NCBI GenBank assembly: GCA_943354835.1 | Contig: CALRDH010000001.1 | Span: forward strand, 115,005-179,004 | Length of the DNA: 64,000 nt | Reading direction: 5' to 3' | Source: a candidate division WWE3 bacterium | Lineage (GTDB): Bacteria > Patescibacteriota > WWE3 > 2-01-FULL-39-13 | Part shown: positions 45,001-57,000 of the stretch, piece after piece | How positions within the stretch are numbered: the first letter of the stretch is position 1 | How the letters are laid out: every line of letters begins with the position of its first letter | Position numbers: made by a program

Positions 45001-48000
45001 GATAGTATCAAAATATAAGTTTTTTTCCATACTATGCTAGAATTTTGCTAATGAAAATTTCTAAATTATTTCTATCAATTAGCGTCTTACTTGGAATCAT
45101 TTTTCTTTTTAGCGGACCTTTATCGACACATGCAAATGCGGCAGCAGCTCCTTGCATAACAGATATAGACCCAACTGCAGGTGGTTATATAGATCTAGGA
45201 GATTATTTTACTTGTGCTATTCCTCGCGCTTTTTCTGTATTTAGAACAATCCTTGTTGCAATCGCAATAATTTTCACACTTTTACTAACATACAAGATGT
45301 TAACAAATACTACGAATTCTAAAATTATGGAAGAAATTCCTACAAGGTGGCTTTATTTATTAATCTTTATTGTCTTAATCGTCGGCGGAGGAAGCGCATT
45401 AAATATTATTTTGAAATTCTTTGGATTCGGAGGAGTTGATCCTTGGCTACAATTAATTAGCGATTTGATAGATAAATTATAATTACGAAACTTTATTTGG
45501 TTATCTTCTTTTCGCCTTATCGTCTGCTACCCCACCACTTTGTAATATACTAACAACTGAACCGCTTGCACCCAAGGCATTCTCTAAAGTACCTCTAATT
45601 TTAAAACCACTCCATGCTATGCCAAAACCAATCATAAATTTAACCAGCGTTACGAAAATACCAAAATTTAAAATGTATCCAATACCTCCAGTGAAAGTTA
45701 ATGTTGGATTAACAACCGTGGCCATAAAACCAAACCCAGTAAATAAAAGTAATATGCCAACAGGGAAAACCAACATATTTACAAGTAGCTTCTTTATAAA
45801 AGTCGTTAACACTGCCTGTTTTCCTGGTAAAATCGACATTACCGCAGCAACTGGAAAGCCAATTGTTAAAACAACAAATGTTCCATACCACTTAGCAAAT
45901 TCATAAATCGCCCTAATAACTAAAGTAACCAATAAAACTACCATCGAAATCACAAGCAACACAATTGGGATAGAAATAGCAATTGTTGCAATAGAATCAA
46001 ACAGGCCAGACATAACCGATATCATAACTGTAAACATATTCCAACCTCCAACAGGCGCAGAAACACCACCGGCCCCTTGGTTAATTTCTTTGAAGATATC
46101 TAACCCGAGTTTGATTGAAAGACCTAAAAGTGGCTCTGCCAAATTCATAACAACCGCAACAATCGGATAAGATAAAACAATGAATATAATAGCCAACGGG
46201 ACGGAAGGCAAAATGCTATATATAGTGACAACTGCCTGAGGACTAAGTTTCTGTCTAAAAAGAACTCCTAGCGCTGCGATTGCTAAGAATAGTCCCAACA
46301 AGGATAAAGATAAATTCCTTGTTGCTTTCCAAACAGACAAAGTACTAGCTTGGAAAAAATCAGATGGCTTTGATAATCCATCAGCAGCATATGCATTATC
46401 ATTAAAAATGCTATTACCTTTAACGTCATCTATATACATTGCTAAGTTTGTTGGAACAGATGGTTCATTTATTATCTGCCCCAAAGTATAAGTGCTCATT
46501 GCGAATAACCCACCAGGCATTCTGCCGTCTTCAACATATGTATAGATATTGTTCATTTCCTCTTCTGTCAAACAAGCTTTCCCTTCAACAAAAACCGCAT
46601 CCATATCCTTTTCTCCGCCACAAGCGAGTTTTAGAGGAGCGTTCATAAGGATGCTCCAGAAAATATTTTGAACCCAATTCCCTAAATGAACAGCAGGGTC
46701 AGTAATAATTTCGAATACAGATTCAACAGGCCCAGCATTTGCTGGCCTTAAAATTATTCCTCTTGAAAATCCGGCGAATAGTAGAAAGATAGCTAAAAGT
46801 ATTATTGAATTCTTAAGATTTTTAAAAGATTTCATTACCATATTTTTATCACGTAAAAAATTATTTCTCAATGAGCCCTTTGAATTTCATAGTATACAAC
46901 ACATTAAAACCTCTTGGCTAGAAACAATTGCATGAATCTGTTTGTACCGTTAAAATGAGCATAAATATGCCTCCTCCAGTAAAAGAACCGATAACATTTT
47001 TAGGATGGATTGAAGACTTGTTCAAGGTGCCTTTTGAGCTTCCACAAAAATCATTCATGGTATTTAGAGACAATTTCACTGGTGGACTGCAGATAACTGT
47101 TAGCGCAACAGGTGTTGATGCCAGTAAAAGAAGCGAATTAATTTCAGCATTCGTTGAAAGCCCAGAAGCCTTTAAAGATCTTTCGGGAGTGAATACAAAA
47201 TTCAAAATAGAAGATATTATAAAACAGCCGCTAGAAACACTCGACAAACTTGGGAAAGGTACTGTGGCTGATGTTTTCAAGCTAGACGACATCGCTTCAA
47301 TCGGAAGGTCCGAAACCATAGAGTCTTTAACTAGAGGAGACACGACGATCGGATCAAGAAACCTAAACAACCCTACAAACAATATATTACAAGGTTTAAA
47401 AAAAGTTAAACTACTCAATTTTGACGGAATAATAGATCCAATCAGGGGTTCAGCAATTAGACTTGTAGTCAACACAGCTCCCAGTGGAGCACCACTAAAA
47501 CTTGAAGACCGAAGAACTGCTGAAGAAGGAGAAAGAGGCGGATCACAATACAAAACATATACAAGCCTATCAGGTTCATTAACAGGAATTACCTCTGCAT
47601 TAGAAGACCCAAAAACGGCATTAAGGTATAGAGATAGTGCTCTAGATGCATATAACAGATCTGTAATGAGAGAACTTGGCATAGATTTAGACAAAACACT
47701 TCCGACTACCAGTGCAAGAAGAGTCTGGGATGCAACAAAAAACAAATTTGAAAGAGGTGGTGCCGACGGAACCTTTAAATCAACATTTCTTGCAGCTCCT
47801 GGAGCAAATTCAATTAAAAAGCTAGAAGCTATAACCACAAACAATAACTTATTAGCCCAAGCTCTGGGGAAACCGATTACAGAAGTTAACGCAATGACTT
47901 CAGATATTAGAGCTCTGCACGTTTCATTTTTAGAATCAGAATTCAGGAATCAAGGACTGGCAACAGGACTTGGCGAAACAAAAGCCCAAATGGCGCAAGC

Positions 48001-54000: not shown

Positions 54001-57000
54001 TGGATGCATTGACGTAAATTTTGCAATCGCAGGAGGTAGAACTGGCAACTGTCCTGATATGAGTCAATCACTGTCTCAAACTTGTAAACTATGCAGAGAC
54101 GCTAGTGGCATAACTACATCAACGTGCGAACCTGGTCCAAAACCTCCAGAAAAAATCGTAGATTGCAGAGATTGTGGATCATGGGCACCGCCATATGCGT
54201 GTGAAAAACTCGACAAACCAGTTCTAATTTCCAAAAAAGAATGTACAGATGGAGTGTGTACAACTGCTGTTGACCTAAATGCAGTCGGGGTGGAATATCC
54301 TGCTGACGTACCTGTAGGTAACGATTGGACATGGACATCAGCTTTCGAATCAGTTATTGATTGGTTCAAGAATTTCTTTGGTGGATCAGGGGACACCAGA
54401 AGCTTTGGTGCATTAAAATGCAAGAAGCAATCGTCTGAAACAAACTGCTATAAACCGGCCGGTGGACAAGCACATTCTGGATCATGTATTTCAGATGAAA
54501 AGCTCCCCCCAAAGAATTATCATGACCAAGAAGACGGCTCCGGCAATTGGGTCTGCGCCTACAAGGTCGATAAGTATCTTTTGTATGCTTATCCGGAAAC
54601 TTTTAATAGTGATTTGAATAAAAATAGATCATCAGACATGCAGATTAATAATGCGCTTTTTAAAGTTCCGCAAATCACCGATGAGTATTTTGAACCTGAA
54701 TATGCAATGGCCAACGTATCTTTCAAGCTTGAAATTGATACAACCAAAAACACTTTAAAAGGTACAACTACTAGTGAATTAATCGGCGATAATGATAGAC
54801 CTGGAGATGAAGGGTCTTTCACCGACCCAAACAGCTATTTGTTTTTAGAAACTCCAGCCGATGAGTCGACTAAGTCTATGAATATCGGCTATTATAATTT
54901 TTATCAACCGCAAGCTAGTGGTTATTGTTTGAGTCAGTCTTATTTGGCTTTACCTGGCGCAGAAAGGTCTCCTCTTTGTGACCCATTCTCTTTTGCTGGA
55001 ACAGTTTCATCTAGTATTCCGTTTGATTTACTTGATCCAGGAGCACCAGCCTCTACATCAACAGATGTAGAAGGTGCGGTAAATGCTGCAAGTAGCAATA
55101 ATGGTATCCCGGCTGCAGTATTAAAAGCTATTTTGGAAGTCGAATACGGAACTGCGGACTTTAAACAATCGGAATATGTTTGCGATAGAAATTCATATAA
55201 TGCTACAGGTCCTATGCAAATTACAGATGGAACAGTTTCGGGCAACTTGAGGGGTAATGAAGCAACAACGTGGAATATTCGAACCGATTGGGCTGTAGGC
55301 GAAGATTATAGTTCTGACGGCAGATGTCAAATCGGAATTGCAATGGAAATTGCTGCAAGAATATTAAAAGACAAAGCTCAAACTGCAGCCAATAATAATC
55401 TTATACCTAACGTAGATTTTAATAATCCTGCAACAGCGATTTACGCATCAGGAGGATATTATGGCGAATGGACATGCGAACCAGATGCGGCAACACAAGG
55501 CAGATGGGGCAGAAATATAAGCTATTGCGACTACTTCATATTCAGAGTTGGACTTCATGGAGGGTATCCGGGTCAAGTATGTACAACTCTTAGCCCAACA
55601 TGCGATGGTGTTGGACCGTTTGATGATGGAGCTGGAGCTACCGGCGGCCCAACACAAGGCACGAAGGTTGAAACACCTGTGAATCAGGTTTCTTCACCTA
55701 CTGTTACAAATCCAAAGGGTGATACGCCGGTTCAAAAAGGGTTTTTGATTGATGTCCAAAATCTTATGAATAAGTATAAGGATCAAATAAAATCAGATAC
55801 GCCAACAATGGAAGATCTTCCCCCAGAGATGATTGCCGAGATTAAGGCTTTGGCAGAAAAGTATAAGAAGTAAAAAACTTATTAATTACAAAACAACCTT
55901 GTAGTTTAGGCTGATTTTATCAACTGGATAGTTTCCAAAGTAATCAAATATCCAAGGGTTTTTGAATATAAATTTTTCATAAATTCCTGGTTTTGTGTAA
56001 GCAATCGGCATTTTTAAAAGATAATAAGCCGTTTTAAAATTCTTGTTTTCAACTTTTAAGTTTGATGTATAAATAATAATCGGATCTTTTATTCCTAAAA
56101 ACTTTAGAATCAATTTATCAAATCGACTGAATTCGCTATTTAAGATGCAAAAATTCTTTTCAGAATTTTTGCCGTAAATTCCAACAAGATCAATTGCTTT
56201 CATAAATTTAAAATACTTTGTATATTTTTTGAACTTTTTTAAAATGACTTTCGAATCTGTTATCCGATTCATGTGAGCCGCCAATTTTTCTTCAAAATTC
56301 CAACCAGGTAAGCCCAAATAAATATCATCAAACAAAACAATCTTTCCTGATTTCGCGAGCTTCCAAATTTCCTCATTAATTTCATCCCTCTTATATTGTT
56401 TTGAAATATCTTTTGTAATAAAAAAATCTAAAACCGAGGCCCTTGTTGGTAAATAATCGATCGAATCGAAAAATTTTAAAGTTAATATAATATCAACCAT
56501 GTGAATCTAAAGCCTCGTTTACAAGTTTGTCAGCCAAAGAATTCGCCTCTCTTCTGACATGATTAAAACTTATTTGCTTAAATTTAGACTTTAAAATAGT
56601 TACTTCTGAATGCAAAAGCTTAAGATTTTCGTCCTTCACCTTATACAAACCATTTACTTGCTTAACAACAAGTTCACTATCCAAAAAACACGAAAGCGAA
56701 GAGATGTCTAACTCCAAAGCAATCGACAAACCTTTAATAAGTGCGGAATATTCCGAAACATTATTAGTCGCAATTCCAATATATTCTTTAAACTGTTTTA
56801 CAACTTCACCAGAAGAATTTTTAATAACACAACCAATTGCAGATGGGCCTGGATTTCCCCTTGCACCACCATCAGTATTTAATGTAAACGTATCAAACAT
56901 ATCCATATACTATACCAATTTTACTTAAAGCTGATAGACTAAATTTAACTGCCATGCCAAAAGTTTTATTAATAGACGACAACGAAATATCCTCATTTTT

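Follow-up and report, generated by a model that had tools for sequence, protein, structure and literature searches.

How does an ultra-small bacterium that lives attached to another cell get its secretion apparatus across one cell wall, or even two? The question concerns the Patescibacteria (candidate phyla radiation, CPR), which account for a sizeable part of bacterial diversity and whose cultivated members live attached to host cells. In one genetic study, a pilus-bearing type IV secretion system (T4SS) of the Gram-positive type was essential for this attached lifestyle (PMC10633639). It is raised here by three adjacent genes, P1, P2 and P3, in a 64-kb window (the whole stretch of 64,000 nucleotides that was analysed) on contig CALRDH010000001.1 of a candidate division WWE3 bacterium. 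P1 and P3 are the longest two open reading frames (ORFs) of the window:

46928-50746, + strand: P1, ORF of 1272 amino acids (aa) from a TTG codon; 1259 aa from the ATG start at 46967
50763-51794, + strand: P2, ORF of 343 aa
51791-55873, + strand: P3, ORF of 1360 aa

Residues of P1 are numbered from the TTG at 46928; L0xx denotes related loci and P0xxx homologous proteins compared in this analysis. We conclude that P1-P3, together with a polytopic membrane protein and two pilin genes next to them (43424-46871), are likely to be the envelope- and wall-breaching part of an MPF_FATA-like Patescibacterial T4SS or pilus. In this lineage the module would be split over two enzymes, rearranged and separated from virB4, by analogy to PrgK/VirB1. 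The observations behind this reading are domain identities, conserved catalytic residues, topology, operon structure, neighbourhood association and domain fusions.

A first-pass annotation of the same DNA had described two giant proteins flanking a bitopic protein. That description was confirmed, with ORFs of 1272, 343 and 1360 aa, and with two corrections, namely the P1 start (probably 46967) and the SLT assignment of P3, which holds at family and fold level only. Its interpretation of the giants as a disassembled VirB1/PrgK-type enzyme is partly supported: T4SS clusters of related loci and fusions of SLT-like and M23 domains speak for it, but the window holds no T4SS ATPase genes and the PrgK analogy does not cover the conserved TIM-barrel core of P3.

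The P1-P2-P3 operon and its domains

P1 and P2 are 16 nt apart and P2 overlaps P3 by 4 nt (ATGA); given these spacings of 16 and -4 nt, the three genes constitute one operon with translational coupling. Counts in a promoter and terminator scan were no higher than the shuffled expectation, so that the scan was uninformative. Proteins identical to the trio have been called on public contigs, including NCBI GCA_943353295.1. The public gene calls start P1 at the ATG at 46967, and the alignment with a 31%-identical orthologue begins at the same residue, which is probably the true start. The parts of P1 are as follows:

46967..49705, + strand: N-terminal region (aa 14-926), no signal peptide and no transmembrane helix before aa 927
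49706..49762, + strand: single transmembrane helix (aa 927-945, LACCCGCIVAPIGLIIIVI), from a hydropathy scan
49832..50167, + strand: candidate DUF11-like, Ig-like beta-sandwich spacer (aa 969-1080), from sub-threshold profile matches
50285..50617, + strand: M23 metallopeptidase domain (aa about 1120-1230), from Pfam PF01551 and PDB matches

The M23 domain at the C-terminus of P1, as first annotated, was found by Pfam PF01551 at aa 1140-1228 (E 5e-18; 65.5 bits, cut-off 28.7), and PDB matches, with E values down to 1.7e-11, include TagE, NMB0315, zoocin, lysostaphin and ShyA. The putative zinc-binding and catalytic residues are H1125, D1132, H1185 (YAHL), H1218 and H1220 (HLH). An alignment of seven family members, in which the loss of these residues would have been visible, keeps all five columns (H, D, H, HxH) invariant. 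The spacing between the first His and the Asp varies: it is x6 in P1, the canonical x3 in L038, and x8 in L007 and L011. The x6 spacing looks like a loop insertion and not like loss of the site.

The lack of an N-terminal signal peptide and the late transmembrane helix of P1 were likewise borne out, and the L003 and L004 orthologues have a helix at the corresponding position. The N-terminal region has a Gly-rich amphipathic stretch (aa ~830-905) and is K/R-rich just ahead of the helix; it contains no Cys in aa 51-900, versus seven Cys beyond the helix. Since a signal peptide is absent, the residues before the helix are K/R-rich and the Cys are distributed in this way, we infer that P1 sits N-in/C-out in the membrane and keeps ~910 residues in the cytoplasm. 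The alternative offered in the first-pass annotation, that P1 is a large extracellular structural protein, has to be abandoned because its first ~910 residues are most likely cytoplasmic. The N-terminal region is fast-evolving and alignable with the L003 and L004 orthologues only, and searches of Pfam, NCBIfam, PHROG and PDB gave no match for it. A similar plan is seen in the M23-type proteins of two distant T4SS loci, the complete 820-aa protein of L005 and a protein of >1180 aa in L006 (whose gene ends at the locus edge): a long signal-peptide-free region, a Gly-rich hydrophobic stretch and transmembrane segments, followed in the complete L005 gene by a C-terminal M23 domain. No homology was detected between the N-terminal region of P1 and those of the L005 and L006 proteins, or the large cytoplasmic proteins encoded in these loci. 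Beyond the helix, the DUF11-like identity of aa 969-1080 is suggestive, as the Pfam DUF11 match (E 1e-4) reached 23.0 bits and missed the cut-off of 24.6; the same region matched DUF7927 (E 2e-4) and TIGR01451 (E 0.0034).

P3 is divided into four parts:

51791..51883, + strand: predicted Sec-type signal peptide (aa 1-31), with h-region, predicted cleavage site TYA/AEP and no lipobox Cys
51902..52726, + strand: N-terminal (beta/alpha)8 TIM barrel (aa about 38-312), from an AlphaFold2 (AF2) model
53141..54490, + strand: Cys-rich centre (aa ~451-900), from Cys counts
55058..55600, + strand: SLT-like domain (aa ~1090-1270), from a family profile, an AF2 model and Foldseek

The h-region and cleavage site agree with the proposal that P3 is secreted. 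Searched as a whole against Pfam, NCBIfam, PHROGs and PDB (phmmer), P3 gave nothing meaningful. The SLT domain named in the first-pass annotation is not recovered by Pfam from the window protein: the excised domain matches PF01464 at E 0.1 (12.6 bits; gathering threshold 21.3), and a 7-sequence profile found no match in PDB. At family level the assignment stands. An exhaustive profile search assembled 199 members. Aligning 133 of these shows E1118 and G1140 in every sequence (133/133 each) and Q1143 of a GPMQ motif in 120/133, while the columns of C1131, C1179, Y1223, G1225 and Y1245 are near-invariant. When a 51-sequence profile was searched against PDB, the top 10 matches were all lytic transglycosylases, the best being MltC (E 6e-4), whose catalytic Glu aligns with E1118 and whose GLMQ aligns with GPMQ. 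Pfam SLT is matched (E<=1) by 15 of the 51 family members, at best with E 6.4e-6, and SLT_2 by 6 of the 51. The AF2 model of the domain has a pLDDT (predicted local distance difference test) score of 91.9. A Foldseek search of PDB, which might have pointed to a non-hydrolase fold, returned Slt70, Slt, MltC/E/F, phiKZ and phi6 lysins and goose-type lysozymes as its top 30 and nearly all of its top 50 matches (probability up to 1.0, best E 3e-3, template-modelling scores ~0.47-0.49). As profile, transitive Pfam matches and predicted fold agree, a lytic-transglycosylase/goose-lysozyme fold with a predicted catalytic Glu is supported for the P3 C-terminus. The predicted fold resembles that of the family 1 lytic transglycosylases and goose-type lysozymes (Slt70, MltC, MltE, EtgA, phiKZ gp144, phi6 P5), with which the domain shares a Glu at a helix end followed by G-x-M-Q and Y-x-G motifs; unlike these, it has the (near-)invariant C1131 and C1179 and several insertions. 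A divergent SLT-like family, some 200 clusters in size, is defined by the locus.

The conserved core of the P3 family is not the SLT-like domain but the TIM barrel (aa ~40-310), as found by BLAST with 51 homologues. The AF2 model of this region (pLDDT 90) has eight beta/alpha units, in agreement with the TIM-barrel-like N-terminus first suggested. Its invariant residues are E141 (ITETG; T-E-x-G) and N294-E295-P296; in the model, E141 ends strand 3 and N294-E295-P296 lies just after strand 8, three strands apart round the barrel. In clan GH-A of the glycoside hydrolases (GH), the acid/base Glu of an NEP motif follows beta4 and the nucleophile Glu stands at the end of beta7. Because the spacing of E141 and NEP round the barrel matches this arrangement, the barrel is a GH-A-like candidate, and from the predicted structure we lean towards a GH-A-like retaining glycosidase. 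Clan GH-A (GH53 galactanases, GH10 xylanases, GH5 mannanases/cellulases) serves as the known system for comparison; profile searches with the barrel in window order and in permuted order gave no link to a GH family, the DHDPS and GH5 matches at E>0.03 being noise. The halves of the barrel are swapped in about half of the relatives (e.g. P0017-P0050; L006, L017, L019, L033-L045). By hidden Markov model (HMM) coordinates, ~48 barrels have the window-type order, ~39 are swapped near 110-130 and ~10 near 140-170; these swaps reveal a natural circular permutation, with at least three topologies of one barrel family. The locus also defines this family of circularly permuted barrels, which present domain databases fail to recognise. 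An SLT-like domain accompanies the barrel in only 17 of the 55 TIM-barrel proteins in the assembled set.

Between these domains, 28 of the 39 Cys of P3 fall within aa 451-900, so that the Cys-rich centre of the first-pass annotation is retained. It is alignable only with the close homologues P0002-P0007 and has no Pfam or PDB match. Its composition suggests a disulfide-bonded extracellular spacer.

By hydropathy, P2 is bitopic, with an N-terminal transmembrane helix within aa ~6-31 and a hydrophilic ectodomain of ~310 aa. The family is very narrow and fast-evolving: homologue searches with the single sequence and with an alignment found 4-5 close relatives only, all lacking Pfam domains. Pfam, NCBIfam and PDB profile searches gave no match to a known family, and PHROGs one weak match (E 0.005). 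In L003, L004, L007 and L011, a P2 orthologue is encoded between the M23 and TIM-barrel proteins, and in L046 a 341-aa bitopic protein encoded 3' of an SLT-like+M23 fusion is a probable P2 homologue (hhalign probability 92%, P 6.7e-7, 220 columns). From this conserved gene position and the L046 homologue, we regard P2 as a conserved partner of the M23 enzyme. No link to P2 was found for the 333-aa incomplete gene that follows the M23 gene in L005. The first-pass annotation had described P2 as VirB8-sized. Like PrgL, TraM and TcpC (itself a two-domain protein), P2 has an N-terminal transmembrane helix and an external domain, lies in the size range of TraM and TcpC, and is encoded directly after a hydrolase. 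Size and topology therefore stand, but no VirB8 sequence link was found, and "VirB8-like" is an analogy of size, topology and gene order only.

Related loci and known secretion systems

Three genes adjoining the operon complete the proposed module:

43424..44995, - strand: 523-aa decorated pilin with signal peptide, ~430-aa Cys-rich ectodomain and C-terminal two-helix VirB2-like pilin domain (aa ~460-521)
45045..45482, + strand: VirB2-like pilin of 145 aa with signal peptide and two transmembrane helices
45501..46871, - strand: polytopic membrane protein of 456 aa with at least six transmembrane helices, divergent from P1

Apart from its orthologues, the 145-aa pilin is best matched by the last pilin gene of arrays lying ahead of TIM-barrel giants in other loci (phmmer E 2.7e-6 and below); jackhmmer from it gathers ~200 pilin ORFs, and NCBIfam gives a weak match to a pilin-like conjugal transfer protein (E 0.07). 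The 523-aa protein matches array pilins (phmmer E 5.5e-6), and jackhmmer from it converges on the pilin family; its match to Pfam T4SS_pilin (PF18895) is under the cut-off (E 0.003), and the L004 orthologue has the same weak match. Similar proteins, with a large N-terminal domain and a C-terminal pilin domain, head the arrays of L006, L024, L040 and L043. The polytopic protein is homologous to proteins of 564 aa in L005 and 558 aa in L006, encoded directly 3' of the P3 homologue.

T4SS markers were counted within 10 kb in 43 loci that have a TIM-barrel homologue, and 29 of these contain one. A pilin gene lies directly upstream of the TIM-barrel gene in 19/36 loci, in arrays of up to 12 genes, and the family of the polytopic protein is present in 22 of the 34 informative loci. 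PrgI, TraC-like and VirB4 genes are found together downstream of the TIM-barrel gene in L005, L008, L029, L040 and L043 and upstream of it in L020; L010 and L012 have only PrgI downstream. In L005, VirB4, the 820-aa M23 protein and a bitopic protein follow each other in the order of prgJ-prgK-prgL. The layout of the window itself, with an opposite-strand polytopic gene, an M23 giant, P2 and a TIM-barrel+SLT giant, recurs in L003, L004, L007 and L011. All credibly named related sequences belong to Patescibacteria/CPR (Woesebacteria, WWE3, Dojkabacteria, Microgenomates, Amesbacteria, Gottesmanbacteria).

The same domains are joined in single chains elsewhere. SLT-like+M23 fusions occur in P0120 (L046 10001-12913) and P0102, of 970 and 921 aa; P0120 is encoded directly after eight or nine pilin genes and before the P2 homologue. 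A 2118-aa Dojkabacteria protein (L038 62-6418) fuses a TIM barrel to M23, and P0165 and P0167 (902 and 1362 aa) fuse an SLT-like domain to a VirB2-like pilin. In L010 the SLT-like domain is on a protein of its own beside the TIM-barrel protein.

PrgK, TraG and TrsG are membrane-tethered proteins that combine an SLT-fold cleaver of glycan strands with a peptidase (LytM/M23 or CHAP). The trio likewise pairs a predicted SLT-fold glycan-strand cleaver with a predicted peptidase, and in other Patescibacteria the pair forms an SLT-like+M23 single chain. Unlike in PrgK, the two predicted activities are here on separate proteins (1259-1272 aa and 1360 aa), the anchor of P1 follows ~910 cytoplasmic residues instead of being N-terminal, and the secreted P3 carries an additional TIM barrel as its family core. 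The trio also differs from the PrgK/TraG/TrsG set in that P1 and P3 have no CHAP domain, the SLT-like domain is too divergent for Pfam, and the genes are not beside virB4 in the window. PrgK (Enterococcus plasmid pCF10), TraG (pIP501) and TrsG (pGO1) are the VirB1-type multidomain peptidoglycan hydrolases of Gram-positive conjugative T4SSs, and PrgL, TraM, TraH and TcpC are bitopic VirB8-like proteins of such systems (PMC12102498).

A 2025 survey (PMC12102498) describes the Patescibacterial T4SS as a homologue of the MPF_FATA conjugation machinery of monoderms. VirB2-like pilin arrays are described there as abundant in Microgenomatia, VirB6 as 'scarce' and VirB8 as almost undetected; VirB1 homologues are seldom near virB4, and the authors remark that other glycosidases may fill the role. 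No convincing VirB1, VirB6 or VirB8 equivalents were reported for Microgenomatia, and many cluster genes were left unannotated (PMC12102498). The M23 giant, its conserved bitopic partner and the polytopic family are candidates for these missing T4SS parts, and a further one is the widespread secreted TIM-barrel giant, with or without an SLT-like domain, which tracks the pilin arrays.

In Ca. Southlakia epibionticum (Saccharimonadia), the T4SS cluster SEML1_0006-0019 is essential for epibiotic growth (PMC10633639). It resembles the present locus as a Patescibacterial T4SS of the Gram-positive type with VirB2-like pilins and wall hydrolases; its pilin array, PrgI, VirB6-like protein and hydrolases lie beside ATPase genes, with no relaxase or coupling protein (PMC10633639). 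That cluster is contiguous, whereas the module proposed here is split. Its hydrolases are different, SEML1_0006 being a phage-tail-lysozyme/glucosaminidase/Cys-protease and SEML1_0007 an M15B-like peptidase, and it includes an annotated 278-aa NTF2-like protein, SEML1_0012 (PMC10633639), whereas P2 has no such link. T4SS-associated wall hydrolases are thus already known, Patescibacteria included, and it is the architecture and the domain families of the present locus that are new; neither PMC12102498 nor PMC10633639, in the portions consulted, describes a giant with a TIM barrel, the SLT-like family or a giant that joins M23 to a cytoplasmic domain.

Two further observations concern the related loci. 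TM-free proteins of 649 aa (L005 12656-14605, - strand) and 1180 aa (L006 16355-19897, - strand), i.e. without transmembrane helices, are encoded on the strand opposite to the flanking T4SS genes; they lie downstream of the polytopic gene and, in L005, before PrgI. Their position recalls that of SEML1_0011, an ARM-repeat protein of 998 aa that is essential in S. epibionticum, and no counterpart was found in the window. Moreover, typical Patescibacterial pilin-array loci are carried by several third-party annotation (TPA) metagenome bins titled uncultured Gammaproteobacteria or Pseudomonadales bacterium (L008, L010, L013, L015, L016, L019, L020, L022-L024, L027, L028, L037, L040), and the taxonomic labels of these records look unreliable.

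Proposed function and competing explanations

From the domains and their contexts we infer activities, substrates, a target wall and a physical association with the T4SS, which together would work as follows. P1 would insert N-in/C-out by its single helix, exposing the Ig-like spacer and the M23 endopeptidase, which would cut the peptide cross-links of peptidoglycan while the ~910-aa cytoplasmic part tethers the activity to the secretion machine. P2, translationally coupled and bitopic, may serve as partner or scaffold of the M23 enzyme, in the gene position that the VirB8-like PrgL holds after PrgK. P3 would be exported by Sec, its SLT-like domain cleaving glycan strands and its TIM barrel, probably a retaining glycosidase with a Glu pair, cleaving a second wall or surface polysaccharide, with the disulfide-rich centre as a rigid spacer. 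The combined cuts would open a local gap for a pilus or channel in the cell's own wall and possibly in that of the host.

Several observations weigh against this assignment to a T4SS. HMMs built from L005 detected no VirB4, PrgI or TraC-like gene in the 64-kb window, and none of the three turns up over a distance of 10 kb in L003, L004 and L011, the loci of the window type. The link to the T4SS is therefore one of homology of context and not of local context. Fourteen of the 43 TIM-barrel loci lack a T4SS marker. Among close relatives, the synteny of the trio reaches as far as RNase H, DUF4012, L25 and LeuRS, and since it extends to housekeeping genes it does not by itself prove a functional unit. 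No VirB6 match was obtained for the polytopic protein, either with Pfam on the window protein and 10 members or with the family profile against PDB, so that "VirB6-like" is a positional label only. P2 has no sequence match to VirB8, PrgL or TraM profiles and PDB chains, and the His-Asp spacing of the P1 M23 domain is non-canonical.

Some of these points would fit P1 and P3 being general growth or division hydrolases (of the MepM/EnvC type and Slt/Mlt-like, respectively) that lie near pilins by coincidence. Such housekeeping remodelling of the wall would be in line with the missing virB4, with the synteny to housekeeping genes kept in L003 and L004, with a SpoIID-domain protein encoded 4 kb upstream and with the best NCBIfam matches, which are of MepM, ShyA, DipM and NlpD type, although all far under their cut-offs. 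We nevertheless judge it improbable. The M23, TIM-barrel/SLT and polytopic families recur in bona fide T4SS clusters of distant lineages, and a P2 homologue reappears next to a pilin array (L046). The housekeeping flanks show no such recurrence. Fusions join the SLT-like domain to pilin domains, and a huge cytoplasmic domain in P1 and a secreted protein of 1360 aa are atypical of division hydrolases. Still less can be said for a degenerate prophage or tailocin, with P1 as a tape-measure protein ending in M23 and P3 as a tail-associated lysin. PHROG tape-measure, endolysin and minor-head families do match P1, which has a long helical Gly-rich region ahead of its M23 domain. These matches are confined to the M23 region (aa 1013-1217), however, and PHROG searches gave nothing meaningful for P2, P3 or the neighbours. 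No capsid, portal, terminase or integrase gene is nearby, and the locus, which is part of the chromosome, keeps its synteny across lineages at 30-35% identity. With PHROG matches restricted to M23 and no phage genes nearby, we reject a phage tape-measure/tail-lysin origin as exceedingly improbable.

A different target is envisaged if P3, and perhaps the exposed part of P1, acts as a host-directed weapon or adhesin on or near the VirB2-like pilus, where it would break down the host's wall or the polysaccharides of its surface. The first-pass annotation had likewise considered lytic tips used against a host wall. This explanation, which we consider rather unlikely, shares the T4SS link with the one preferred here and differs from it in the target wall; it is at odds with the catalytic domain of P1 being held near the producer's own membrane by a spacer of only ~170 aa. 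A bolder possibility, doubtful when taken as a whole, is that the P3 family is an unrecognised core part of the T4SS pilus, a secreted, disulfide-rigid multi-enzyme 'drill head' encoded immediately after the pilin array. P3 would then travel on the VirB2-like pilus or dock to it, its TIM barrel digesting the surface polysaccharide of the host and its SLT-like domain the host's peptidoglycan. P1, P2 and the polytopic protein would stand in for the VirB1, VirB8 and VirB6 missing from Microgenomatia-type lineages, without being homologous to them. If true, it is by such means that the epibiont would gain its connection to the host.

Other features of the window

Just upstream of the proposed module, the SpoIID-domain protein (40861-42702, + strand; 613 aa) has a long coiled-coil N-terminal half. 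A SpoIID-type gene is also present in L003 (252-2123), L004 (1-943) and the distantly related L006 (2220-3980), where it adjoins the pilin array, and the system may include this protein as an additional wall enzyme. A PIN-domain gene (43061-43435, + strand) has a 12-nt opposite-strand overlap with the 3' end of the 523-aa pilin-fusion gene. On the other side, P3 is followed by genes for a 204-aa protein without match (55886-56500, - strand) and for an RNase H/RVT_3 protein (56493-56906, - strand); in L003 and L004 the position of the 204-aa protein, compared by position only, is held by proteins of 244 and 251 aa.

The window as a whole is low-GC bacterial chromosome (GC 0.30-0.41) with housekeeping genes for RecA, RNase Y, RNR, FtsH, SmpB, LeuRS and L25. 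GC over P1 and P3 (46001-56000) is 0.38-0.41, compared with a window mean of ~0.34 and with 0.30-0.33 on either side (36-40 kb and 56-60 kb); the raised value could stem from a Gly/Ala-rich composition or from foreign origin. Two ORFs on the + strand are without Pfam or NCBIfam match, one of 443 aa (27788-29119) and one of 614 aa with one central transmembrane helix (23213-25057). Next to the latter, smpB (25059-25511, + strand) directly precedes the tmRNA gene (25577-25957, + strand; Rfam 109.5 bits), whose tag peptide is AKNANVFADADVNAYAFA.

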